Origin: a virus
DNA: 64,000 bases
Direction: 5' to 3' (one strand)
IMG/VR virus record: IMGVR_UViG_3300042259_000159
In this document: piece by piece, positions 2,094-58,202 of the stretch
Position numbering within the stretch: position 1 is the first letter of the stretch
Layout of the letters: the number at the start of each line of letters is the position of its first letter
Translations under genes and position numbers: made by a program
The notes under the pieces: model-generated
Told to the model about the DNA's origin: nothing
The model's input: only the letters and a program-made list of their open reading frames with translations
Databases searched by the model: none

Positions 2094-2879
2094 TTATTGC
2101 ATATAATTCCGAATTGCTCTAGCGTATGCTTCAAGAGCAGTGCCCATAATGCCCGGAGCAGTGTTCACTTCCAAGACGTAAGCCATATTCGCCCGCTGGT
2201 TGTAGATAACATCCACTGCTCCGAAGTCAAGCCCAAGAGCTTTAACAGCGAGGAGAGCCTGATTCTGAACTTGGAAGGGGCAGGTGTCATTTACGTCAGC
2301 TCCGTCTTTGTCAGTCCGAACAAAGATGAATCCCTTCTCATGGTTGCGGATACGCCAATCCACATTCTTAATATTCATTTCGGGATTGAGGGCTTTCCTC
2401 GTGATGTCGATGATTCTCCCGTTAAAGACATGGACACGATACTCCTGCTTTTTCTTGATGTAAGCAGTGTAGAGAGGAGCCTCAGGAACTTTGCCATGAG
2501 GCTCCACCAATTCAATTCCCTTTCCGCCATACCCAACGAGAGTGTGACGAACGACTACACAACCTCCGTTTTCCGCCCACAACTGAGCTCTGTCTCGGTC
2601 GATAGTGAAGGCGGGAAAATTGACATACTCTTCATCTTCAAACACTTCAAAAGTACGAAGCTTGTTGGAAGCAATTGCCACTGCCTCAAAGTCGTTAAGC
2701 ACACGACAATCCTCAGGGATGTGCTTAGGACGGGTAGAGCAGCCCCAGTTGAGCACCATTTTATCGGGGGTCCATTTCCACTTGCTGCGTTCAGCTCGAA
2801 TGCGGAGAACACCCAATTCAGTAGCAAGGGCTTTAGCGGACGTAGACTCCATTTTGTAAGGCAGAATAAACAGTTTCAT
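2094..2879 (-). CDS. ATP-grasp family ligase
   Basis: Track ORF 261 aa. Glycine-rich loop GYGGKGIE and C-terminal VLEVNTAPG typical of the ATP-grasp fold. First gene of a tightly packed minus-strand cluster. Confidence 0.75.
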   Translation of the reverse strand: MKLFILPYKMESTSAKALATELGVLRIRAERSKWKWTPDKMVLNWGCSTRPKHIPEDCRVLNDFEAVAIASNKLRTFEVFEDEEYVNFPAFTIDRDRAQLWAENGGCVVVRHTLVGYGGKGIELVEPHGKVPEAPLYTAYIKKKQEYRVHVFNGRIIDITRKALNPEMNIKNVDWRIRNHEKGFIFVRTDKDGADVNDTCPFQVQNQALLAVKALGLDFGAVDVIYNQRANMAYVLEVNTAPGIMGTALEAYARAIRNYMQ

Positions 2880-2889
2880 TTTTTGTCTC

Positions 2890-3714
2890 CTAGATGTCTA
2901 TTAAAGGTTCGTCGATAAACACTGCGTTCATAAAGTCAATGCCATTGACAATAGAGTAGCAGCGATAAAGCTGTCTTTTGAACGAAGCGTTAAAGTCTTC
3001 GTAGGCAAGAGCGAAGGGAAACACTTCCCTCGTAAAGGCTATTGCGTCTTTAGACGCTTCTTTCAGGAGGGCATGAGGGTCTTCAAAAGTACAAGCTTTC
3101 TCCCGAAGAGAGAGGAGAAGGCGGAGCCACTGCTCAATCACTGCGATGTCCACAGTCCCACGCATAGCTCTGAACTCAATCGAACCATACTGAGGCGTAG
3201 CCTTGATGTTCATGCTTGCATAACGAATGTCGTTGTCATCCAAGGCATTAAAGTTCATGCTTTTTGCAAGACCCTCCAGTTTGAAGATGAGTCCTTCCGC
3301 ATCAAAGGAAGAGAGGCAGAAGAGATTGCCTTTACGCGTTTCTCCACAAAACTCCAGAAGAGCGTCTTCATAAAGCAAGTAGAGTATAACAAAGTTGAAC
3401 CACTGGCCCACTGTCAATTTTTGAACGTTAATATGAACATGAACAGATGTTCTGTCCGAGAGGACAACATCCGCTCTCCTGAGATGTTCTCTCAGCATAC
3501 GGAGCCGACGACAAGCCCCCGGGAAGCTGATGGGTTGAGGAAGGACGTATTCCTTCGGGTCATGCCCCCCAATAGGACGAAGAGAAGGTTCGATATGTAC
3601 CTGCCACCCATTCACCTGACGGGGGAGGTCACGACCTTCCACCTCTATTTCAATGCCAATGTCCCCATTCTTAGGGACCAACCCCAGCATATCGGCAATA
3701 GTTATTTCAGCCAT
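2890..3714 (-). CDS. putative amidoligase (glutamine-synthetase-like COOH-NH2 ligase)
   Basis: Track ORF 274 aa. N-terminal GIEIEVEG motif resembles the E-x-E nucleotide/metal site of GS-like amidoligases. Assignment from motif recall only. Confidence 0.45.
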   Translation of the reverse strand: MAEITIADMLGLVPKNGDIGIEIEVEGRDLPRQVNGWQVHIEPSLRPIGGHDPKEYVLPQPISFPGACRRLRMLREHLRRADVVLSDRTSVHVHINVQKLTVGQWFNFVILYLLYEDALLEFCGETRKGNLFCLSSFDAEGLIFKLEGLAKSMNFNALDDNDIRYASMNIKATPQYGSIEFRAMRGTVDIAVIEQWLRLLLSLREKACTFEDPHALLKEASKDAIAFTREVFPFALAYEDFNASFKRQLYRCYSIVNGIDFMNAVFIDEPLIDI

Positions 3715-4268
3715 TCTTCTCCCACCACCTCTTTGATGTAGTTAGCATAGAAGTTGTCTGCCACAATAAACTTTTCTTCATCAATATCTGCCACAGGCAT
3801 AGTCCGATAGAAAAGACTCCGCTCCCCAATAGCGAATTCCCTATGGAAGGCTATGCTTCTTCTTCGAGAACGGTCTTTCTCAAAGCATTCTTCCACCGTA
3901 GGGTAGTCGGCTATAATGGTCTTTGCCAAGTCTCTTACATTGGGTTGAGCACTTATCCCTACATAGTTGGAACGAAGGTCCAGACGGTCAAGAACCAATC
4001 CTTGCTTCTGCTTCCGATGGGGCCAGCGAGCCACATACATTGAGACCCCAACTAGGGTGTTCACATAGCCCAAAGGAGGAGAGGCAAAGTCCCATCCCTC
4101 ATCCCTAATGTGGATGCGAGCATCTTCTCCTTCTTCATCAAGAATGTCATACCCATTAGCAAATCCATCTTCCACATGCCGGATGTAGAAGGGGCTGCCA
4201 TTATACCTCACTACCGTTCCTGCCAGACGCATATTAGCGTCATGGTCGTTATTAAATTTCAACAGCAT
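3702..4268 (-). CDS. hypothetical protein within amidoligase cluster
   Basis: Track ORF 188 aa; overlaps neighbours by a few codons, consistent with operon packing. Confidence 0.5.
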   Translation of the reverse strand: MLLKFNNDHDANMRLAGTVVRYNGSPFYIRHVEDGFANGYDILDEEGEDARIHIRDEGWDFASPPLGYVNTLVGVSMYVARWPHRKQKQGLVLDRLDLRSNYVGISAQPNVRDLAKTIIADYPTVEECFEKDRSRRRSIAFHREFAIGERSLFYRTMPVADIDEEKFIVADNFYANYIKEVVGEEWLK

Positions 4269-5043
4269 GGGGCACTCCCAGATTGTACTTCTTAATAAGA
4301 GCGACTGCCGAATCTACATCCGAAGTGTTGATGATGTTGGTGATGTCTCCCTCTTCCTCAGCCAAGTCTCTTCCTGCAAGCAAGTCAACAACAGCTTGTC
4401 GGGAAGCGGAGAACACCCAACGCATCAGACGCTCTTCTTTAAGCCAAGCATTGGACAGAGTGCGATATTCCATGCCGTAAGGCTTAACACGAAAAGCCCC
4501 TGCCTTCCCGTAGAGTTCTCTCCTTTTGGTGTCCTTGTCGAACAGAAGAGAAGGCAATCCAAGGTAGAAATCCAGCTGCCGTGCAAGCTGACACGAAGCA
4601 AGGAAAGCTCCGAAGTCGTTCACATCATGCTCCATATAGCCGATATGAACATGCCCAGCAGCAGTGCGGAAGTCTCGATTACCGTCAGGAGAAGGGTTGA
4701 TGTCCTGCGTCCACCCATTGTAGTCGGGGTCACACCCCAATTCAAGAGCGGCAGGAGGCTGAGTAGCCATATACTCCTTGCCAAAATGAGCCACAGGCTC
4801 AATGACAATTTCCTCCTTCACCATACGACGAAGCTGAGCGAATACATGCTCAATGTTGCTGACGAAGGTGTTTTCATCAGCTGCCGGCTCAATGTTAAAC
4901 TCAAGAGCCATACCATCCACCTGTACAGCCCCCTTCTCAACAGGGAAAGGGGCTTCCTTAGTCCCGGGAATGAGGCCGTAGCCGGAGATGAACTTCCCAT
5001 TGTCCTTCACAAACAGTTCGGGGTCGGTGCCAATGTATATCAT
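4252..5043 (-). CDS. hypothetical protein, possible second COOH-NH2 ligase-like enzyme
   Basis: Track ORF 263 aa (MIYIGTDPELFV...AAGHVHIGY). Sits between the amidoligase-like gene and the amidotransferases. Family assignment tentative. Confidence 0.4.
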   Translation of the reverse strand: MIYIGTDPELFVKDNGKFISGYGLIPGTKEAPFPVEKGAVQVDGMALEFNIEPAADENTFVSNIEHVFAQLRRMVKEEIVIEPVAHFGKEYMATQPPAALELGCDPDYNGWTQDINPSPDGNRDFRTAAGHVHIGYMEHDVNDFGAFLASCQLARQLDFYLGLPSLLFDKDTKRRELYGKAGAFRVKPYGMEYRTLSNAWLKEERLMRWVFSASRQAVVDLLAGRDLAEEEGDITNIINTSDVDSAVALIKKYNLGVPHAVEI

Positions 5044-5054
5044 GTTATTCCTCC

Positions 5055-6266
5055 TTAAAAGGGTATATTAGAGTCATACAGGGAGACAAAGTCTTTGTCT
5101 TTCAGGCATTCCAAACAAACAGAATCGTATTCCGAGATGATTGCGATTTTCTCATTCCTCTCATAGAACTTCCCGCACCAGTCGCAGGAGTGGTAAGGGT
5201 GATGCGGGTAGCTTATCTTATACTCAATCTTAGGGGCTTCTTCCTCCTTCTGATTGATGGGAATGATGGAACCCACAGTGAAATACGTCTTCTTGTCGAG
5301 CGTTTGCCCGATGAACAATATCTTTGCCCGAAGGGGGACGCCCACAGGAACATCCGAGTTGCCATATGCGAAGTGACGAGCTTCAATATCCTCTCCAATC
5401 ACCTCACCGAAGTAGTCGACATTCTTCCCATATGTGCTTTCCCTTTTGTGGAACTTCACAGTGGCATACTCATCTTCTCGATAGGTGCGAAGATTCCCCA
5501 CTGCTTTTCGTGTTGCCCTCTCCCAATTATTCCACCCTTGGTGGATGTACGTTGTCTTGACAGGAGGCGTGTACGAGCAAGGAGTGAGCTTCTTGGTAGT
5601 GAGTTTAAGGCCGTTGCTCAAGTTCCACGAGTAGAGAACATTTTCTTTCACTTCGCAAGCTTTCATGCAGGGTATTTTGTTTCTCCAACATGCCGCATGA
5701 ATGAAGAAAGGCTCAGAAGCCCAGAACACCACCTTCTTTTCTTTGTCAAGCATATAGTAGAGAGGCCGCTTATCGTTCCGCAGCATGTTGAGCGTGTCTT
5801 CGTTTTCGTCATACCAGACAAGAGCAGCTGCCCCGCAAAGATTCTGCCAAGTGTCTTCCACACCATGTATGGACATATGGTGGTAGATGTTGGAAGAATC
5901 AACATCGAATTTCTTGTAATCCGCCAGAAGATGTTGGGCTGTAAGTGTTCCGTTATGCACTCCTGTAATGTGCCCATGCTGAAACGGATGAGCGTTTTCC
6001 TCGATAATAGTTCCTTTCGTTGCTGCTCTATTATGCCCTATAAGGCATTTCAACACTTGTGAAAAGATAGGCTGTACTTTACCAATGGTGACAAAGTCAT
6101 AGGCTGCCAGAAGAGATTTTTCGATAGTGACTTTCTTCGTATGGCGATTTACTCCAGCGAGACCCACGGAATCAACTCCGCGTATTTCGTCAAAGATGAG
6201 CATATCCTTGACTGCCTTCTCCTCTTTCGTTGTAATCAGTCCAGCTGCTCCAATAATACCACACAT
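5055..6266 (-). CDS. class II (Ntn-type) glutamine amidotransferase domain protein
   Basis: Track ORF 403 aa. Starts MCGIIG, i.e. Cys immediately after Met as in Ntn amidotransferases. Confidence 0.7.
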   Translation of the reverse strand: MCGIIGAAGLITTKEEKAVKDMLIFDEIRGVDSVGLAGVNRHTKKVTIEKSLLAAYDFVTIGKVQPIFSQVLKCLIGHNRAATKGTIIEENAHPFQHGHITGVHNGTLTAQHLLADYKKFDVDSSNIYHHMSIHGVEDTWQNLCGAAALVWYDENEDTLNMLRNDKRPLYYMLDKEKKVVFWASEPFFIHAACWRNKIPCMKACEVKENVLYSWNLSNGLKLTTKKLTPCSYTPPVKTTYIHQGWNNWERATRKAVGNLRTYREDEYATVKFHKRESTYGKNVDYFGEVIGEDIEARHFAYGNSDVPVGVPLRAKILFIGQTLDKKTYFTVGSIIPINQKEEEAPKIEYKISYPHHPYHSCDWCGKFYERNEKIAIISEYDSVCLECLKDKDFVSLYDSNIPF

Positions 6267-6391
6267 AGAATACTCCTTTTTCGCACAGAAAAGGGGTTTT
6301 AAGCCCCGTTTATTTGTTTTGTGGACAATGAGATGTCATTGCATCTACCATCGCTTAGAACCAATTCTCGAAAGAATTGGCTCCAAGAGGG

Positions 6392-7006
6392 TTAGATGCC
6401 GAATACATCCTTCAGTACAGTGAAGAACAGCGTTCGAGTGTCATCCTTCCCACCATATTCAGGATGGGGTTGGAAGCACAGGCTCTTAGTCTTCGGGTAG
6501 ACGACAATTTCAGCTTGGTCGTCACGAAGAACAGAGCGCACCCTTCTTTCAGCCGAGAGAAGAGTGTTGTCGATGCAGTCTTCCACTTCTCCGAATCCTT
6601 CAAGACGACCATGACGGGCAGGAATCATCATCTGGTGGTGAGTGGAGGTGACTTTGTACTTTTCTCCCCTCCAATCGAGAGTGTGTGTGCCTCTGATGGC
6701 ATGACCCGTGACATCCTGCCGCATACTTCCACCATTCATCACATTGAGGAATTGCCCCCCACGGCATATTCCCACCAATGCTGCGTTGTGTTGTGTGGCA
6801 AAGAGGTAGTTGGTTATGTCAGCAATGTCTCGCTGAATACAATTATGGGAAGCCCTGTTGAGTTCACCATACAGAGAAGGGGTGACATCATATCCGCCAG
6901 AGAACACAAAGAGGTCAGCTTCCTCCATCTGTGTTGTCATCTGGTAGCCTGCATTGAGGAACATGGTGGACACAGCAATGTCTTGCGTAGACATAAAGAA
7001 TTTCAT
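6392..7006 (-). CDS. class I glutamine amidotransferase-like protein (gamma-glutamyl hydrolase type)
   Basis: Track ORF 204 aa. Nucleophile elbow GICRGGQ. Confidence 0.7.
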   Translation of the reverse strand: MKFFMSTQDIAVSTMFLNAGYQMTTQMEEADLFVFSGGYDVTPSLYGELNRASHNCIQRDIADITNYLFATQHNAALVGICRGGQFLNVMNGGSMRQDVTGHAIRGTHTLDWRGEKYKVTSTHHQMMIPARHGRLEGFGEVEDCIDNTLLSAERRVRSVLRDDQAEIVVYPKTKSLCFQPHPEYGGKDDTRTLFFTVLKDVFGI

Positions 7007-7815: not shown

Positions 7816-8077
7816 GTTTCTCTCCTTTCTTCTCTCTGTATAATATATATATATATATTATATAATAATATATATTATACAGAAGTTAATAGTTTAGTTA
7901 AGAGCAGGAAATCCTGCCCTCTCTAAAGTATTAACAGTAAGGGTCTTCGTCCTCTATCGACCAGTCAATCGGCTCCTCAGGCATAATCGTCACCATTTAT
8001 TTGCGAGTAATCTATTCCTTGTTATTGAAAGTTTCTTGTCACATTTTCCATTTTCCAACGTATAATATATTAAGAGA

Positions 8078-8479
8078 CTAGTTCTTGCGACACCAGATTC
8101 CGTCACAAGACGGAGGCTTATTCATCTGGTCAACGTGGAGAGACACACTCTCAATAGGGTATACAATCATGTTATCGTCCCCTTCTTCTTCCACATTGAG
8201 GTAGTAGGACGACTGTTTTTCAAAGTCAAAGTACCTCACTGATGTAACTTTCAGACAAACATGAGCGTTCTCTTTGTAGAAGAAGTCCCCAACATCAAGG
8301 TCGGTGAAAGCCCTCTTCAGGCTAGTATGTCGGCTAACAACTGCAACTCTGGTCATACTCTCTTCTCCTTCGTTTTCTTCCTTACCTTTCAGATAGGGAA
8401 TTTTCAATATTGCAAACACGCTGATACCCATAGCCGCTACCAGAAAGAAAGCTTCACTCCATAACATAGGAGGCTCCAT
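8078..8479 (-). CDS. membrane protein
   Basis: Track ORF 133 aa with hydrophobic N-terminal helix (LWSEAFFLVAAMGISVFAIL). Confidence 0.45.
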   Translation of the reverse strand: MEPPMLWSEAFFLVAAMGISVFAILKIPYLKGKEENEGEESMTRVAVVSRHTSLKRAFTDLDVGDFFYKENAHVCLKVTSVRYFDFEKQSSYYLNVEEEGDDNMIVYPIESVSLHVDQMNKPPSCDGIWCRKN

Positions 8480-8481
8480 GA

Positions 8482-8718
8482 TTAGCGTTCAAGCCAAGAA
8501 TACTCTTCAGTAATACGGAAAAGTGAACAAAGTGGGTATTTATATACGACACGCTTCTTATCTTCCTCAACCAAAATACAGAAAAGACCGCCTTTTGTAT
8601 ATGTGTTGACGACATTCTCAAGCGTAATTGGTTGGCTGGATTCATTTCTATGTATTGAAATTTTCATACCTTTCTCAATAGCGTCAGTCATTGTACTACT
8701 CCTTTTAAGTATGCGCAC
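8482..8718 (-). CDS. hypothetical protein
   Basis: Track ORF 78 aa, co-directional and tightly packed with neighbours. Confidence 0.4.
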   Translation of the reverse strand: MRILKRSSTMTDAIEKGMKISIHRNESSQPITLENVVNTYTKGGLFCILVEEDKKRVVYKYPLCSLFRITEEYSWLER

Positions 8719-8963: not shown

Positions 8964-9028
8964 CAGTCTCCCCTACCTTGTAAATGGCACTATTTTTCAA
9001 AACCCTGTCTAGGCTTTTTGCAGACATC

Positions 9029-9274
9029 TTACTTCCTCCTCTCCATCCATATCTGACGTATCTCTTGGAAGAGACTAAGACCTTCATGAAGAATAAGTGC
9101 AAGCACCCCTACCCAAGACAACACCGCAACAATAGCACAAACGATGAGTGCCTCACCAAATGTGTTGACATAACATCCATACGTCCTTTGTAGGCCAATA
9201 AGGACTAGGCAGCCTATATATGCAACAACTACCCCGCTCAGGTAAGTGGAAACGACAAGCTCTATTCCCGTCAT
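9029..9274 (-). CDS. small membrane protein (two hydrophobic helices)
   Basis: Track ORF 81 aa, strongly hydrophobic. Confidence 0.45.
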   Translation of the reverse strand: MTGIELVVSTYLSGVVVAYIGCLVLIGLQRTYGCYVNTFGEALIVCAIVAVLSWVGVLALILHEGLSLFQEIRQIWMERRK

Positions 9275-9427
9275 TTTACTTCCTCCGTGCTTTGTCCAGC
9301 ATCATCCTCTGGTTTTCAGACAGTTGTCCCCAATACACTTGGGGATTGTACAAGGCTTTCCACGAGGGCAGACGCAGTTCCTTAGCCAGTGACTTTTCTA
9401 TTGCGTTAGGCATAACCTTCATCCTTG

Positions 9428-9766
9428 TTAATATTCATAGTATTCGCGTAAAGCGTCGTTGTTCCATGCCGGCTCATACACAGGCTTGTCATGTGCTTCT
9501 GCGAGCTTGTGAAGCACGTCGACAATGAAGGAAACGCCATTCTTTGCTTTCTTCGGATTGTTCTTCAGCTGGGCTTCAGCCGCAAGTCTCCCTACCCACT
9601 TCACATATCGGTCAGAGTTGGAACACTTCGCCACACCATACTCCACCTCTCCACTAGGGAGAGAACGGTATGCCACCGTAGCTCCACCGAAAGGATGATA
9701 AGGGTAGAAGTCACCGTTACGGTTGATGTAGCTGCGGCGGTAGTGAAAGAACGACACTTTATCCAT
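9428..9766 (-). CDS. hypothetical protein, PFGGATV-motif paralog family
   Basis: Track ORF 112 aa with HPFGGATVAYR...GVAKCSNSDRYVKWVGR; shares the motif with 9784-10050 and 28085-28573. Confidence 0.55.
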   Translation of the reverse strand: MDKVSFFHYRRSYINRNGDFYPYHPFGGATVAYRSLPSGEVEYGVAKCSNSDRYVKWVGRLAAEAQLKNNPKKAKNGVSFIVDVLHKLAEAHDKPVYEPAWNNDALREYYEY

Positions 9767-9783
9767 TTCTATTCTCCTTTGTC

Positions 9784-10050
9784 CTATTCCCAGCGACCAC
9801 GGTAGTCAGGTGTATTGTATGCTGCTCTTATGTACGCTACTATTCCATCGAACACGTCTTTTTTCATTGTTAAAGGGGCAGACAGAGCGTCTATGTATGC
9901 GAGGTTACGCCCGATGCGTTTCACATACTGTTCAGAGTTACAGCATCGGGCAAGGCCAAATGCTACAGCATCCCCTACCTTGCGGTAGAAAACAGTAGCG
10001 CCACCAAACGGATGAAGACGCAATTCACCTTTACGGCTTATGTAGGGCAT
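9784..10050 (-). CDS. hypothetical protein, PFGGATV-motif paralog family
   Basis: Track ORF 88 aa with HPFGGATVFYR...GLARCCNSEQYVKRIGR; tandem paralog of 9428-9766. Confidence 0.55.
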   Translation of the reverse strand: MPYISRKGELRLHPFGGATVFYRKVGDAVAFGLARCCNSEQYVKRIGRNLAYIDALSAPLTMKKDVFDGIVAYIRAAYNTPDYRGRWE

Positions 10051-10069
10051 TGCTCCCTTCTCTTAATTG

Positions 10070-10312
10070 CTACAACACATCACACACACGAGTCCCATTG
10101 TTATAGTAGTATCGGTATTCCCGCACCTTAACAAGTTGTCCTTCCTTGTTAGGTGACATTACACCAATGGAAATGGAAGGAAATATTCCTAGCTCCAATT
10201 CATGCAATGCTACCTTATAAGCGGCGTCGAATGTTGAAAACAATTGGTATCGGTAGGTGTATACGGACATTACACTGTCTTCCAGAATAATTTCATTCCG
10301 CAGACTTTTCAT
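10070..10312 (-). CDS. hypothetical protein
   Basis: Track ORF 80 aa. Confidence 0.4.
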   Translation of the reverse strand: MKSLRNEIILEDSVMSVYTYRYQLFSTFDAAYKVALHELELGIFPSISIGVMSPNKEGQLVKVREYRYYYNNGTRVCDVL

Positions 10313-10428: not shown

Positions 10429-10797
10429 TTAGAACACCATATCGAGAACCGCCGACACGGCTTTGTTTAGTGTATGGAATCTTGCTTCTTCTTCCATCCT
10501 ATCGCCCGTGATATTCACGAGCACAATGCTATCGAGGTGCGGAAGGAGGGTATAGTCCTCCTCGTTGATAGAAAAGAAAAGCCCTTCCTCGCTTTCATAT
10601 GCGGCGATAAGGCGCTTGGCTACGTCCTGTTTATCCTTCTCCAGCCGGAGACGCTTTACGGCCTCGCTGTTTTCAACGTAGTCATGGCAATCCGTTCCAC
10701 CTTTACGGGCAACGAACGCACCACCGCCACAAGTCAGGGGCTTTCCTTCACCCCACCGGCAAGTCTGGCAATATTGTGTGTTTTGCATAGCAGTCAC
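10429..10797 (-). CDS. hypothetical Cys-rich protein
   Basis: Track ORF 122 aa (CQTCRWGEGKPLTCGG...C). Confidence 0.45.
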   Translation of the reverse strand: MTAMQNTQYCQTCRWGEGKPLTCGGGAFVARKGGTDCHDYVENSEAVKRLRLEKDKQDVAKRLIAAYESEEGLFFSINEEDYTLLPHLDSIVLVNITGDRMEEEARFHTLNKAVSAVLDMVF

Positions 10798-11599: not shown

Positions 11600-13050
11600 C
11601 ACAAACAAACAAAACCTTGCTAGGGCTTGTTTGTCTATGGCGCACAAAGCGTCTATCCTACTTTTCGCCATAGTCCATGATGCGCGTTCCCCGATAGCCT
11701 AGGAATAATTTGTCCTTTCTAAGCGAAGAAATACGCGGAACCATGCTACTTTTCGAATATCCGCTTTGCTTTTCGGAGCGGTGGCCCGCTGCAACCACTT
11801 AAGGAGTCTAGACCACGTCACGCCGCTGAATTCTATCAACGGTCTGCGATGTAAGACGGTACGGAACCTATATAGGACGGTTACCTATCGGTGTCAACCG
11901 GTTTTTTCGTCCGCTTGCCGTACCGTGCCGGTATGCCGCTGATATAGCATACGCCGTGCCAACGTGTGCAACATGTTGAAATATCAGCACTATTTTTTGT
12001 GCCCTGAAACGCTATGCCCTAACCGCTTTATGTAAACCGTTGAAATGACTAGCTTTTCATATAATGCCGGTTAAAAATTTTGTACCGCTTTTCTGCTAGT
12101 GAATGAAAACTATGGCAATGCCGTAATGTAAGCGCCTGATATAATTGGCGGTTTAAAAAATTATACCATTTCAGGCAAAAGTATAAAAAATTGAACCGAC
12201 CATTTTCTTGTATAATGAGACGCGATTGCAATTATTATGCCAAACTGAATGGAACGCCTTGTGCTTATGCAATTGCCATGCCAATTGATATGGCACAATA
12301 AGTGCATAAGCAAGCATTGTGCCAACAAAGTTATCAGCCAGTTTAGCATGAAGCGTGCCATAATGTCATAAGTGAATGATAGCAGCATGATAGCATGGTT
12401 CAGCAATCTGAATATAGAATGTTATGTCTCGTTTATTGATCATTGCATATAAGCAAAATGATCAATAAGAGAGACAATATTATATAATAAGTATATACTT
12501 GTGTCGAGCGTAAGCGAGACGATATAATACTATATAGAATACACGTAAGTGCCCATAATGATTGGACTATAGGTGAATGAGTAGTTGAAACATGATAGCA
12601 GTAGGGTAATGACCTATATATGCCGTAGGCGATATAGGATACCAGATAAATATGCCGTAGGCGATATAATATTCCCTAACCGATATAGATTTACAGGGGG
12701 GTAGTAGGGGGTGAGGGGGTGTCCTTTTGGATGCACTACCCCTTAAAAATTTCTCATAGAAATTATCGCCCCAGCCAAAAATATTTTCTCCAATTCCCCC
12801 GCACATTTACACACAAATATGTCGAGCGTAGCGAGACGATATAAAAATATTTTGTCACACTTTTGATTTTCTTACGTATATACATATAGGGGGATAAGGG
12901 GGGAAGAGGAATAAGTATTATAACGAAAGAAGAAGAAGAAGAAATAAGATGGTAGATATATAAAGGGGAGGGCTCTGCTAAGAAAGCAGCCCTCCCCTTA
13001 TAAGAAATAGATGAGGAAGAGAGAGGCTAACATAACAAAGGAAAAGTAGG
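11600..13050. repeat. 1.4 kb non-coding region with short direct repeats separating leftward early genes from the rightward tail-fiber gene
   Basis: No convincing ORFs. Repeated units include atatgccgtaggcgatata (x2), gtcgagcgta(a)gcgagacgatata (two copies), cggtt(t)aaaaa(a)tt-type units, and G-rich gggggtagtagggggtgaggggg. Confidence 0.4.
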
Positions 13051-26288: not shown

Positions 26289-26317
26289 TTGACAAAAGTG
26301 TTCGGTCTTGATAGGTT
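26289..26317 (+). promoter_or_regulatory. sigma70-like promoter (cTATTGACAaaa...gTTGTATTTAAC family)
   Basis: TTGACA 26289-26294, 17 nt spacer, TAGGTT; the same extended motif recurs at 32236-32264. Confidence 0.4.
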
Positions 26318-26356
26318 GTATTTAACGAAACAACATAAACAAACAAAAGGTTCAGA

Positions 26357-26768
26357 CATGCGTAAAACTCTTTTTATTATTCGGGGTGCTTCCGGTTCCG
26401 GTAAAAGCACTCTTGCTGATGAGATTGATAACATTTTGCAGGTTTGGGAAGCAGATATGTATTTTACAGATGCCATTACTCAGGAATATAACTTCATCCC
26501 TAAACTCCTCCCGCTGGCTCATAAGTGGTGTCAAAATCAGATCCGTAAGTGTATGGAGCGCGGTGACAAGAGAATTGCTGTGGCAAATACCTTTACAAAA
26601 AACTGGGAAATGAAACCATATCTTGACATGTGTGAAGATTTTGGTTACACTCCTTTCGTAATTCGCTGTGAGAATGCTTTTGACAATATCCACGATGTAC
26701 CTGAAGATGTTGTCAAGAAACAACGCGAACGTTTTGAAGATTATGGAGTAACTAAAGATGTCTCGTAG
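26357..26768 (+). CDS. P-loop kinase (polynucleotide/nucleotide kinase-like)
   Basis: ATG at 26357; Walker A GASGSGKST. Track ORF 26289-26768 begins upstream from an alternative start. Confidence 0.6.
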
Positions 26769-27802: not shown

Positions 27803-28084
27803 GTCTTAATTCCTCGACTGGCCAGTCCCATTCAGACGTTTAAGGAGTACAAATGCTTGCTTTTTGTTCGCAAGACGAGTTTGATTTTTCAGAGGAAAAA
27901 CAGGAAAGACGTGTAAACCGTATGAAGAAGGGAAGTAAACGGCTTACTAAAGAAGATCGTAAGAAGATAGTTAAACAAAGGCGTATACTTAAGAACAAAG
28001 AGGGCTTCAGGGATGAAGAGCATGATGGTGAGTATATCTAGCGCACCACACTCAAAATGCCTGAGAAAAAATAAGGAGAACACT

Positions 28085-28573
28085 GTGGAAAAGATGAGTG
28101 AAAATATGAGCCTCTATGATTTTATTCTTGAGGATCTTGCAAAACTTAAAGGTACTACGAAATACGGGCACTACCGTCACAAAATGTTAAAGCTGCTTCC
28201 ACGTATAGGCTTTTTGGGTGATGCCGGTTACTACCCCTTTGGAGGATGTACTGTAGCACTTGAGTTCACTAATGTAGGTGTTGCTATAAAATACGGAGTA
28301 TGCAACGAGGTCGATCGCTTTGTTAAAAGCCTCGGAAGGGCTTGTGCAAGATCAAAAAAGCCCTCACAATTTTATCCGTATGAGAAACTTCTAGAAGACA
28401 TCCTTCAGGATGAAGAATGCCTTACGGATGACAGCCTTGCATGTAAGCTTGATATCGCACTGACAACCCTAGATACCTTTAGACGCATGATCATACAAAG
28501 AGCCTACCAGAAAGCCGAGGAAGGTCTTAAGAAGGCAGGATTTAAAGAGAAAACATTCTACATTCTGAAATAG
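28085..28573 (+). CDS. hypothetical protein, third member of PFGGxTV-motif paralog family
   Basis: YYPFGGCTVALEF...GVCNEVDRFVKSLGR shares the motif with 9428-9766 and 9784-10050. Start placed at GTG after aaggaga; start uncertain. Confidence 0.45.
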   Translation: MEKMSENMSLYDFILEDLAKLKGTTKYGHYRHKMLKLLPRIGFLGDAGYYPFGGCTVALEFTNVGVAIKYGVCNEVDRFVKSLGRACARSKKPSQFYPYEKLLEDILQDEECLTDDSLACKLDIALTTLDTFRRMIIQRAYQKAEEGLKKAGFKEKTFYILK

Positions 28574-28647
28574 GCATTTATCACCTTGACAAGCATCTTA
28601 TCTTAGGATAGGGTGCTTTTATTATTTTCAATTACAAGGAGGATGCT

Positions 28648-30024
28648 ATGGAGATGTTTTTTAGCAACAAAGAGGTTATCAGGGCTTGGGAAAATGTTGT
28701 GAAAAAACTTAACGCCAGCGGTTTTAAAGGTGCCATTGTTGGCGGTGCAGTTAGGGATGTTTTTATGGGAAAGACTCCCACAGATATAGACATTGCTACA
28801 AATGCAACACCAGAGGAGGTTTGTAGCATCTTTAAAGGTGCTAAACTTGTTGGTGAAAGCTTTGGTGTTTGCCGTTGGAATGGCTATGAAATTGCTACTT
28901 ATCGAAACGATGTCCACAACGGTATTGGTGATACTTGTTGCACCGTGAGGTATACAGACGATCTCATTGAAGACCTTAGGCGTAGAGACTTCACAATGAA
29001 TGCTTGTGCATATGAGAGGCATCCTGACGGGACAACGCATTTTGTTATGGCACAGGCAGGTTGTCTGGATGACATCGAGAATAAGCGTCTTGATTTTGTA
29101 GGCAATGCTGAAGATAGAATCAGGGAAGATCCCAACCGCAGCTTCAGAGCATACCGCATGATTTGCAAAACAGGCTTTCTGCCGTCATATGCTACAGCAA
29201 AGATAATATACAACAGAGGTATTGTTGAAAAATATCTTCCGTACATTGCACCTGAGAGGATAGGTAAAGAGCTTATAAAATCTATGGAGGAGCCTTTCTC
29301 TTGGAATTTTTTTAGGTGTCTTTACAGGTCTGGTATTATGTACACTCTCATCCCTGAGATGGCACAGGCTTGGAATATTTGGGGAGGAAAATACCATGCA
29401 GAGTACGTTGGTGAACACCTTATGGCTGTTGGTATGGGTATCTCTGCAAAATTCCCCTTGCTGAGGCTTGCAGGGTATCTGCATGATGTTGGTAAGGGGG
29501 TAACACACGAGGATGGCAGCTTCATCCGGCATGAAAAAGAGGGCGTGCATATTGCGCGGAGGTTTCTTAAAAGCCTTAAGTTCTCTACAAAAGATACAGA
29601 GAAGGTTTGCAATATAATTCGTTGCCATATGCGTAGATTTGGTGAGAATGAAACGCCTGCTACAAACAGGCGAACCCTTGCATATCTTGCAAAACACAAT
29701 GTCTGCACATACGATTTCATCCGTTTGCGGATTGCGGATCACAACGGCAACTTTGCATGCAAGAAGATGAAATTCAGAGATATTAAGTCCCTTGTCAGAT
29801 GTTGGGACACCTATCAGTTTGAAAAACAAGCTGCCCATAGTAGGAAAATGCTTGCCATTAATGGCAGGGATATTATGAAAGAGTTTAATATCCCTCCGTC
29901 AAGACTTGTTGGGGAGATGATTGAATTTGCCCATAATATTGTTCTTGACAATGTTGATAAAAACGAATATAGTATCCTTATCAATGAAATTAAAAAGCGG
30001 TTCGGAGGTAGCAATGGCGAATGA
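28648..30024 (+). CDS. cca: tRNA nucleotidyltransferase (CCA-adding enzyme) with HD domain
   Basis: Track ORF 458 aa with RBS caaggagg. Polymerase-beta head motif GGAVRD...DIDIAT and HD motif LHDVGK. Confidence 0.8.
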   Translation: MEMFFSNKEVIRAWENVVKKLNASGFKGAIVGGAVRDVFMGKTPTDIDIATNATPEEVCSIFKGAKLVGESFGVCRWNGYEIATYRNDVHNGIGDTCCTVRYTDDLIEDLRRRDFTMNACAYERHPDGTTHFVMAQAGCLDDIENKRLDFVGNAEDRIREDPNRSFRAYRMICKTGFLPSYATAKIIYNRGIVEKYLPYIAPERIGKELIKSMEEPFSWNFFRCLYRSGIMYTLIPEMAQAWNIWGGKYHAEYVGEHLMAVGMGISAKFPLLRLAGYLHDVGKGVTHEDGSFIRHEKEGVHIARRFLKSLKFSTKDTEKVCNIIRCHMRRFGENETPATNRRTLAYLAKHNVCTYDFIRLRIADHNGNFACKKMKFRDIKSLVRCWDTYQFEKQAAHSRKMLAINGRDIMKEFNIPPSRLVGEMIEFAHNIVLDNVDKNEYSILINEIKKRFGGSNGE

Positions 30025-55122: not shown

Positions 55123-55206
55123 TGGTAGGAGAAGAGAGATTCGAACTCTCAAGGAATAATCCGTCGAGGCTTAAACTCGATGTGTTTACCATTTCACCAT
55201 TCTCCC
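55123..55206 (-). tRNA. tRNA-Leu (anticodon TAA), type II, CCA encoded
   Basis: Hand-folded cloverleaf: acceptor GGGAGAA/TTCTCCT, anticodon stem TCGAG/CTCGA with loop TTTAAGC, long variable arm, T-arm GAGAG-TTCGAAT-CTCTC. Confidence 0.7.
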
Positions 55207-55245
55207 GTATTTTTTATCTACCATTCCGCCATTCCCGCATTTATT

Positions 55246-55323
55246 TGGTACCCACTGTGAGATTCGAACCCACACTAATCAGTTTCTAAGACTGATGCCT
55301 CTGCCAAGTTGGGCTATACCAGT
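55246..55323 (-). tRNA. aberrant tRNA-like gene (anticodon TAG, type I architecture, poorly paired acceptor stem)
   Basis: Good D-, anticodon (TCAGT-CTTAGAA-ACTGA) and T-arms, but 5' acceptor ACTGGTA mispairs with the adjacent 3' strand AGTGGGT. Confidence 0.4.
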
Positions 55324-55581
55324 ATTATGCTTATTATTTTATTTTGAAAGGCCATATGTATACACATATATATATATACATATATATATGTATAGAGCAA
55401 CCAAAATGGTTAAATAAAAAGGTGTTTTGTGGAGACACCAAACTCCTCCAGTTTTAGTGATCTGGAAACAATAAGCGGCGCAGGTGCTCTTTAAAACACG
55501 TGCTACCAAGCGTATAAATTGTCTAGGGGATTTCACCAAACACATTATGTTATTGGAGGGATCTTTCCCTAGACTCAGTAA

Positions 55582-55654
55582 AGCTCCTGACAGGACTTGA
55601 ACCCGCAACCGGCTGATTACAAATCAGCTGCTCTGCCAGTTGAGCTACAGGAGC
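55582..55654 (-). tRNA. tRNA-Thr (anticodon TGT), no encoded CCA
   Basis: Acceptor GCTCCTG/CAGGAGC, D-arm GCTC...GAGC, anticodon loop TTTGTAA, T-loop TTCAAGT. Confidence 0.7.
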
Positions 55655-55658
55655 AGAA

Positions 55659-55730
55659 CAGAGGGAGAAGGATTCGAACCTTCGAATGACGGGACCAAAA
55701 CCCGTTGCCTTACCGCTTGGCTACCCCTCT
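55659..55730 (-). tRNA. tRNA-Gln (anticodon TTG), no encoded CCA
   Basis: Acceptor AGAGGGG/TCCCTCT, anticodon stem ACGGG/CCCGT with loop TTTTGGT, T-arm GAAGG-TTCGAAT-CCTTC. Confidence 0.7.
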
Positions 55731-55738
55731 AAATTTTT

Positions 55739-55815
55739 TGGCTCCGGCGGCAGGATTTGAACCTACATTCGCAATGGTTAACAGCCATTTGCCTTACCAA
55801 TTCGGCGACACCGGA
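55739..55815 (-). tRNA. tRNA-Asn (anticodon GTT), CCA encoded
   Basis: Acceptor TCCGGTG/CGCCGGA, anticodon stem AATGG/CCATT with loop CTGTTAA, T-arm GTAGG-TTCAAAT-CCTGC. Confidence 0.7.
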
Positions 55816-55860
55816 ATGAACTTTTTATTTGTTATCAGCATTGTTTTGCTTTATTTTAAA

Positions 55861-55939
55861 TGGTCTCGGTGATTAGATTTGAACTAATGATTATTCCTGC
55901 TCCCAAAGCAGGTGCCATACCAAGCTAGGCGACACCGAG
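55861..55939 (-). tRNA. tRNA-Pro (anticodon TGG), CCA encoded
   Basis: Acceptor CTCGGTG/CACCGAG, anticodon stem CCTGC/GCAGG with loop TTTGGGA, T-arm ATTAG-TTCAAAT-CTAAT. Confidence 0.65.
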
Positions 55940-58022: not shown

Positions 58023-58109
58023 TGGTGCCCAATGCAGGACTCGAACCTGCACGCCATTTCAGGCAGGAGGGCTTAAACCTCGTGTGTCTACCAATTCCAC
58101 CAATCGGGC
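58023..58109 (-). tRNA. tRNA-Leu (anticodon TAA), type II, CCA encoded
   Basis: Acceptor GCCCGAT/ATTGGGC, anticodon loop TTTAAGC, long variable arm, T-arm GCAGG-TTCGAGT-CCTGC. Confidence 0.65.
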
Positions 58110-58118
58110 TAAAATCTT

Positions 58119-58202
58119 TGGTGCCTCAGACAGGATTCGAACCTGCACGGATCTCTCCACTTGGTCCTAAGCCAAGCGTGTCTGCCATTCCACCACTGAG
58201 GC
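58119..58202 (-). tRNA. tRNA-Leu (anticodon TAG), type II, CCA encoded
   Basis: Acceptor GCCTCAG/CTGAGGC, anticodon stem CTTGG/CCAAG with loop CTTAGGA, long variable arm, T-arm GCAGG-TTCGAAT-CCTGT. Confidence 0.7.

Follow-up and report, generated by a model that had tools for sequence, protein, structure and literature searches.

We analysed a 64,000-nucleotide (nt) stretch of viral DNA, IMG/VR record IMGVR_UViG_3300042259_000159 (hereafter the window), and found that three of its small genes, here labelled A, B and C, belong to a large, almost purely viral, mostly uncultured and unnamed protein family. Structure prediction gives the domain common to A, B and C a fold like that of double-stranded RNA-binding domains (dsRBDs), and profile alignment identifies the phage sponge protein Acb4 as a real yet remote homologue of the family. 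Based on the conserved basic residues of the domain, our tentative reading is that the three proteins bind nucleic acid, most likely structured or double-stranded RNA (dsRNA). The genes and the conserved core are as follows:

9428..9766, minus strand: paralog A, an open reading frame (ORF) of 112 amino acids (aa) with isoelectric point (pI) 8.9
9566..9697, minus strand: conserved core of A, residues 24-67, HPFGGATVAYR ... YGVAKCSNSDRYVKWVGRLAAEAQL
9784..10050, minus strand: paralog B, an ORF of 88 aa, pI 9.6
28085..28573, plus strand: paralog C, an ORF starting from GTG, 162 aa, pI 8.7

A sequence-only reading of the window had described these genes as paralogs with a common motif, a claim that stood or fell with the significance of the motif alignment. 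Using pairwise BLASTP, the likeness was far greater than expected by chance: A and B were 37% identical over 89 aa (E = 8e-16), A and C 44% identical over 45 aa (E = 2e-9) and B and C 36% identical over 53 aa (E = 7e-7). All three ORFs were recovered on the positions and strands given above, with the motifs as quoted. The common core spans ~65 residues, the first half of the motif reading HPFGGATVAYR in A, HPFGGATVFYR in B and YPFGGCTVALE in C, and the second half CSNSDRYVKWVGR, CCNSEQYVKRIGR and CNEVDRFVKSLGR. The helix that follows starts with K56-W-V-G-R60 in A (where it begins at residue 56), K-R-I-G-R in B and K-S-L-G-R in C. The core occupies residues 13-51 of B (nt 9898-10014) and residues 50-89 of C (nt 28232-28351). 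C deviates in having Cys for Ala/Thr in the GGxT motif and one residue fewer ahead of the conserved Cys; its elements are an N-terminal helix (10-20), a YGHYR strand, the core and then extra C-terminal helices, including a long one (118-150). Ribosome-binding sites were found ahead of each gene: AAGGAG 7 nt before the ATG of A, AGGGAG before the ATG of B and AGGAG 6 nt before the GTG at 28085, which is most plausibly the start of C (an alternative, longer ORF begins with ATG at 28013). B precedes A, both being transcribed the same way, with a gap of 17 nt between them.

A hidden Markov model (HMM) of the wider family, applied to all six-frame ORFs of the window, recovered A (E = 2e-27), B (E = 2e-17) and C (E = 4e-17), scores that are partly circular because the three proteins sit in the alignment behind the family profile (A3). 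Independent support for their membership comes from the pairwise BLASTP matches and from the 535 relatives that were found with an earlier profile of this clade alone. There was no fourth copy in the window, the next six-frame ORF reaching only E = 1.3 with the family HMM.

Conservation and copy number, which had been named as a check on the family, revealed orthologues at 81-95% identity on metagenomic contigs and an unusual multiplicity of copies. Orthologues of A (P0001, 94%; P0002, 82%) were found on metagenomic phage contigs, as were those of C (P0003, 95%; P0005, 81%), and the B orthologue (P0004, 84%) shares a 1.9-kb contig with P0001. A word-indexed protein search returned orthologues only, on four metagenomic contigs. 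Outside the orthologues, the nearest relative of A was B and that of B was A, and the two look like an old tandem duplication; C carries additional helices and is further diverged, being no nearer to A or B than to the rest of the family (its distances to A and to other members are about equal). Only 1 of 80 other family loci (~7 kb examined on each side) contained two domains, and there within a single ORF, so a tandem pair accompanied by a third copy is unusual. Of the relatives on long contigs, the closest (L001) has an A orthologue (82%) flanked by syntenic genes (61-98% identity), and four unrelated small ORFs (9015-9983 of that contig) replace B and the 80-aa gene upstream of it (9784-10312 of the window), marking the B slot as a local gene-replacement hot spot.

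The sequence-only reading had counted three members, far too few. Using an exhaustive profile search (counting representatives at 50% identity with E ≤ 1e-3), we identified at least 535 clusters, mostly of 90-130 aa. Members carry the signature [FY]xHxR ... GGxTxAY ... VAxC-x3-[DE]-x-[YF]-x-[KR]-x2-GR, with VAxC-x3-D-x-[YF]-x-K-x2-GR as a narrower form of the last part, within the consensus M..K[FY]xHxR - 10 to 20 residues - GGxTxAY - hairpin - YxVAxC...Dx[YF]xKxxGRxxAxGRL. A, B and C match both the family profile and the signature. According to the HMM, the basic positions are Lys/Arg (76%) and Arg/Lys (72%) in K-x-x-G-R, His (67%) and Arg/Lys (70%); in the numbering of A, strand 1 carries the conserved positive residues H8 and R10, and the start of the helix carries K56 and R60. 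Many members have a second Arg, in the GRL motif, which is absent from A and B.

With so compact and highly specific a signature, members are readily found. A degenerate DNA pattern covering the motif's C-terminal half retrieved 72 IMG/VR loci, every one of which was a family member by HMM. The same pattern applied to 596 Gb of bacterial and archaeal genomes yielded six loci (five confirmed members), all on contigs of metagenome-assembled genomes. Among isolated phages, a tblastn search with the consensus detected the family in 9 of 50,697 records, from phages of Stenotrophomonas, Xanthomonas, Desulfovibrio and Pseudomonas and from one uncultured phage; a match in Pseudomonas phage Cassandra was not used, as it lies on the strand opposite an annotated coding sequence. 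Elsewhere, family genes were found in runs of small unknown genes on phage contigs of 5-365 kb. Several members are tandem fusions of two domains (230-300 aa; P0006, P0007, P0012, P0018 and P0020, and also locus L060 at 8030-8602), which suggests that the domain acts at least as a dimer and is relevant to the adjacent A and B. Domain fusions among longer members yielded no Pfam clue to a partner.

The sequence-only reading could not assign the motif to a known family, and it indeed belongs to no named one: A, B and C returned nothing significant in Pfam, PHROGs, NCBIfam or PADLOC, and we regard matches to Glyco_hydro_109_C (E = 0.058) and to a Cox-like phrog (E = 0.23) as noise. The sole library family that caught part of the wider family was phrog_32235 of PHROGs, which has neither annotation nor function and covers a minority of members (14 of 85, best E = 7e-7); A matches it at E = 0.007, while B and C do not match. 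A Pfam scan of the same 85 members gave weak matches to PF13876, the Acb4 family (six members), and to the Rv2632c-like PF08962 (five members). The fold can be assigned, as dsRBD-like, and a distant homology to Acb4 was found.

The AlphaFold2 model of A, built from the 85-sequence alignment, was confident (predicted local distance difference test score 83.8, predicted template modelling score 0.73) and contained strands at 5-9, 12-14, 26-35 and 41-53, a helix at 56-69, a strand at 72-74 and a helix at 77-91. The model of C (77.5 and 0.63) has the same core. The domain consists of an N-terminal strand with [FY]xHxR, a β-hairpin (GGxTxAY ... YxVAxC) and a loop and helix with D-x-[YF]-x-K-x-x-G-R, a predicted arrangement that is dsRBD-like. 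Fold neighbours of the AlphaFold model were uS5, Rv1738, dsRBDs and Acb4. Against BFVD, the best 15 matches were uncharacterised proteins of the same family, and the next tier included three verified proteins of the published PF13876/Acb4 list. By contrast, the top sequence-profile matches in the PDB, the IL-20 receptor β (E = 0.22) and SrfA (E = 1.1), were rejected as short motif look-alikes. In the human receptor (PDB 6df3_H / 4doh_B), the stretch AAYCVKAxTFVKAIGR resembles the family's VAxC...DxYxKxIGR; because it lies in a β-sandwich receptor, we judged the likeness to be coincidental.

Acb4 (anti-CBASS 4; Pfam PF13876, Phage_gp49_66; PDB 9E4W; CBASS, cyclic oligonucleotide-based antiphage signalling system) was described in 2024 as a widespread, essentially virus-only sponge on a dsRBD scaffold (10.1101/2024.12.30.630793). 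In phage SPO1 it is gp1.3, a tetramer that sequesters 3'3'-cyclic GMP-AMP (cGAMP), with a dsRBD-like protomer and a ligand pocket formed by the β3-α4 loop and helices of neighbouring protomers (Chang et al., 10.1101/2024.12.30.630793). We compared the family with an alignment of 24 Acb4 sequences, comprising SPO1 gp1.3, four close relatives and 19 sequences from Table S3 of that study. Using hhalign, the two profiles aligned with 87.1% probability (P = 3.9e-6) over 49 columns, placing residues 24-72 of A on residues 33-80 of Acb4, compared with 0.1% for the reversed control and at most 2.6% for 30 column-shuffled controls; with a narrow eight-sequence alignment of this phage clade alone, the probability was 49%. 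Searches in both directions agreed: the best non-family match of the family HMM was SPO1 Acb4 (E = 0.029, among 1377 ORFs), and the best window match of the Acb4-family HMM was B (E = 0.062).

The two families resemble each other in more than these scores. Both consist of small phage proteins with a dsRBD-like three-stranded sheet and helix, encoded among small accessory genes, and in both the most conserved segment is the β3-helix loop (C-x3-D-x-[YF]-x4-G-R-x2-A in the family, SAC-x2-PENFD-x-EIGR-x-IA in PF13876). The Cys-x10-Gly-Arg spacing is identical, with D/E at +4, F/Y at +6 and I/V at +10. In SPO1 Acb4, guanine is contacted by K36, F48 and E49, adenine by V56, F62, N63 and I66, and the phosphates by Y57, T70 and K81 (10.1101/2024.12.30.630793). 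In the hhalign register, the adenine-pocket residues V56, F62, N63 and I66 correspond to C48, Y54, V55 and V58 of A and are conserved in kind, whereas the guanine contacts (G28, E40 and V41 in A) and the phosphate contacts Y57 and T70 (S49 and A62 in A) are not conserved.

Further differences set the family apart. Where Acb4 has helices α1-α3 at the N-terminus, A and B have strands with [FY]xHxR (the His and Arg being nearly invariant) and GGxTxAY. The family is basic (median pI 8.95, 69% of members above 8), whereas the sampled Acb4 proteins are acidic (median 4.97, 96% below 6 and none above 8), and K-x-x-G-R at the helix start is a feature of the family and not of Acb4. The PF13876 model did not match A, B or C even at E ≤ 10, and the matches in the wider family reached E = 0.0077 at best. 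Given the unmatched Pfam model, the unconserved guanine and phosphate contacts, the N-terminal strands, the basic charge and the K-x-x-G-R motif, we do not consider the family part of Acb4, and an Acb4-style tetramer or cGAMP binding in it is only putative. Rather, Acb4 has a sister family of comparable sequence diversity that is absent from Pfam, differs in charge and ligand-deciding residues, and is nearly absent from cultured phages and cellular genomes; PF13876, in contrast, is common among isolates.

A 2026 preprint reports that viral dsRBDs require a [KR]-x(1-3)-[KR] motif, placed where the second helix begins, to bind dsRNA, and that Acb4 has lost this motif while some phage dsRBDs carry it (10.64898/2026.07.21.739742). 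A, B and C all have the motif at the N-terminal end of the corresponding helix. The PF00035 dsrm model matched none of the 85 members at E < 0.1, and compared with canonical dsRBDs (PF00035; viral E3L and NS4a), A and B lack helix 1 and have extra N-terminal strands, and the family has no GPxH-type loop. Rv1738 has been proposed to bind ribosomes like HPF via a ring of positive residues. It aligned colinearly with the family profile, although not significantly (E = 1.8), and A, B and C had neither a PF08962 model match nor a significant sequence match to Rv1738 or Rv2632c. Rv1738 and Rv2632c (PF08962), which the family resembles and whose folds are likewise dsRBD-like, are Mycobacterium tuberculosis dormancy proteins, cellular and actinobacterial where the family is viral, and their role as ribosome hibernation-like factors is itself only proposed. 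Judged by their published descriptions, Lockin, a hexamer of curved β proteins, and Acb5, a tetramer that uses W38 and H61 for catalysis and occurs mostly in actinophages (Tal et al. 2025), do not fit the family.

With the guanine and phosphate contacts of Acb4 missing from a basic family, the proteins are better explained as binding nucleic acid than as sequestering a small signal, and this is the function that we favour, although we hold it with less than even confidence. The conserved basic face and the conserved β3-helix loop would form the binding surface, much as dsRBDs use their KR motif, and candidate ligands are tRNA, rRNA or the ribosome, and dsRNA. The role would probably be accessory: the proteins would help to take over the host or protect RNA against its nucleases or sensors, and the three diverged copies might represent three specificities or, in the case of A and B, a hetero-oligomer. 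Consistent with RNA binding are the basic pI, the conservation of K-x-x-G-R, the tRNA-rich neighbourhoods of family genes and the position of C beside a gene for a CCA-adding enzyme. The features next to C are:

28591..28618, plus strand: terminator-like hairpin with a 12-bp stem and T-rich tail, from a consensus scan only
28648-30024, plus strand: CCA-adding enzyme with HD domain (PolyA_pol, HD, tRNA_NucTran2_2), adjoining C

We found tRNA genes in 44% of the 72 family loci, at 2.0 per 10 kb. For 120 control loci, obtained with a DNA motif of Acb4, the corresponding values were 18% and 0.27 per 10 kb. In ANB28, JGB6 and L010/L011 the family gene lies directly upstream of a tRNA array. The window itself has eight tRNA genes on the minus strand (55123-55939 and 58023-58202).

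Several observations weigh against RNA binding. Acb4, the sole biochemically characterised homologue, binds cyclic dinucleotides and not RNA, and its hydrophobic triad (V56/Cys, F62, I66) is kept as C48, Y54 and V58, which fits a nucleotide pocket or loop packing equally well. A basic pI is suggestive, not diagnostic. The tRNA association holds at the scale of neighbourhoods only: 18 family genes were within 1 kb of a tRNA gene compared with 13.3 expected by random placement, so we rejected a specific fine-scale adjacency. This lack of closeness within loci means that the signal may reflect phage type, namely large virulent phages with tRNA islands, and in the window 45 kb separate A and B from the tRNA cluster. 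Finally, the terminator-like hairpin separates C from the CCA-adding enzyme gene. Lying between the stop of C and that gene, it suggests that C ends its transcription unit, as far as a consensus scan can indicate, which weakens an operon link between the two; the total number of terminator-like sites in the region was not above the shuffled expectation.

The main competing explanation, possible though improbable in our estimate, is that the proteins are sponges in the manner of Acb4, with oligomers whose pockets, formed by the conserved β3-helix loop, would sequester a nucleotide signal of host immunity (CBASS, Thoeris, Pycsar or type III CRISPR). The signal would be other than the cGAMP bound by SPO1 Acb4, and the paralogs would cover different signals. 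The homology to Acb4 is centred on precisely this ligand-binding loop, with the Cys-Arg spacing and the D/E, F/Y and I/V positions kept, and the family is, like Acb4, essentially virus-only. The genomic setting fits as well, since these are small proteins within arrays of small accessory genes, the B slot varies between close relatives as expected of anti-defence islands, and the natural two-domain fusions recall known sponges, which are often fused. However, the opposite charge of the two families, the lost guanine and phosphate contacts, the missing PF13876 match in A, B and C and the different N-terminal architecture of A and B all argue against it. As sponges, the proteins would probably be directed at something other than cGAMP, adding to the signals that phages are able to intercept.

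The sequence-only reading had guessed at host takeover or anti-defence. Such a putative role would be compatible with both RNA binding and signal sequestration, and the one biochemically characterised remote homologue is indeed an anti-CBASS sponge. A sponge role is nevertheless only putative, because the family departs from Acb4 in its charge, in its N-terminal architecture and in the residues that contact the ligand, and we consider RNA binding at least as likely.

A third explanation, which we rate as rather doubtful, is that the proteins bind neither RNA nor a small nucleotide, acting for example as a DNA-binding early regulator or as a protein inhibitor of a host enzyme, with the motif being purely structural. 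Those relatives with any signal (Acb4, Rv1738, uS5 and dsRBDs) bind, or are proposed to bind, nucleotides or RNA, and we observed no helix-turn-helix or other DNA-binding signature and no fusion pointing to a partner. That the motif is a chance resemblance, or that the ORFs are not genes, might be argued from the small size of the proteins and the long antisense ORFs overlapping A, but is refuted by the BLASTP scores (8e-16 to 7e-7), the orthologues, the strong ribosome-binding sites, the 535 clusters and the confident AlphaFold2 models.

A bolder version of RNA binding, which we regard as a long shot, is that the family represents an unrecognised class of phage dsRBD-like RNA binders, the counterpart in bacterial viruses of the dsRNA-shielding proteins of eukaryotic viruses, such as E3L and NS4a. 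Such proteins would have evolved from a scaffold in common with the Acb4 sponge and would protect phage tRNAs or structured or double-stranded RNA from RNA-targeting or RNA-sensing immunity of the host, or silence host ribosomes as HPF does; the three copies, possibly with A and B as a hetero-oligomer, would cover different targets. If the proteins do bind RNA, they would provide a way to test a recent proposal, namely that certain phage dsRBDs counteract RNA-based processes in bacteria.

Finally, we examined the genome around the three genes. The window has a GC content of 42%, and the A region is 100% identical to a 91.6-kb IMG/VR contig (IMGVR_UViG_3300042267_000152). A megablast of 8-12 kb found no nucleotide-level relative among isolated phages. 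At the protein level, a DnaB-type helicase shares ~40-45% identity with its counterparts in phages of 90-145 kb that infect Pseudomonas, Acinetobacter, Aeromonas and Salmonella, and the window also encodes a Toprim primase. A and B belong to a block of small leftward genes that precedes the replication and amidoligase genes. The block is headed by the best sigma-70-like promoter match, and A and B lie ~2.5 kb downstream of it:

12479..12507, minus strand: best sigma-70-like promoter match, TCGACA-17-TATAAT (11 of 12 positions), from a consensus scan only

An early or accessory region is thus plausible, since the small-gene block lies downstream of promoter matches and upstream of the replication and amidoligase genes. 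The number of promoter-like sites in the region equals the chance expectation, however, and we regard 12479..12507 as a candidate early promoter, a lead rather than proof. Two genes upstream of B, 10429-10797 (minus strand) encodes a 122-aa protein with a Cys-rich, zinc-finger-like N-terminus (CQTC ... C ... C) that is 79% conserved in L001 and has no family match.

Downstream of the block, a minus-strand module at 2094-7006 includes an ATP-grasp protein (weak match), Amidoligase_2, a phiEco32-type COOH-NH2 ligase, GATase_6/7 and Peptidase_C26. Genes of the same kinds lay no more than a few kb from family members in 12 of 80 other loci and in Xanthomonas phage DES1 (L007, L013, which is DES1, L026, L028, L031, L033, L040, L042, L057, L064, L067, L078 and L083), with family proteins at these loci only 25-55% identical. 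Strikingly, near-full-length antisense ORFs mirror two genes of the module in the window (2094-2918, 261 aa on the minus strand versus 273 aa on the plus strand; 4252-5058, 263 versus 263 aa) and are probably an artefact of codon composition.

Another recurrent neighbour was a zinc deaminase-like gene (~120 aa, HAE ... PCxxC), located at most 3.5 kb from the family gene in 9 of 80 loci (for example, 4894-5385 in L033 and 2594-2896 in L013). In DES1 it is annotated as a cytidine/deoxycytidylate deaminase domain protein and lies immediately upstream of the family gene; none was seen adjoining A, B or C. The CCA-adding enzyme gene has an AAA_33 P-loop kinase-like gene (26289-26768, plus strand) 2 kb upstream, and the two could form a tRNA repair or maintenance set. 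The tRNA genes of the window include two separate pairs of tRNA-Leu(UAA) and tRNA-Leu(UAG). One of the ARAGORN calls, Leu(tag) at 55246-55314, looks atypically short at 69 nt, and the pair at 58023-58202 lies within a 92-nt tandem duplication whose copies are 84% identical at a spacing of 96 nt.
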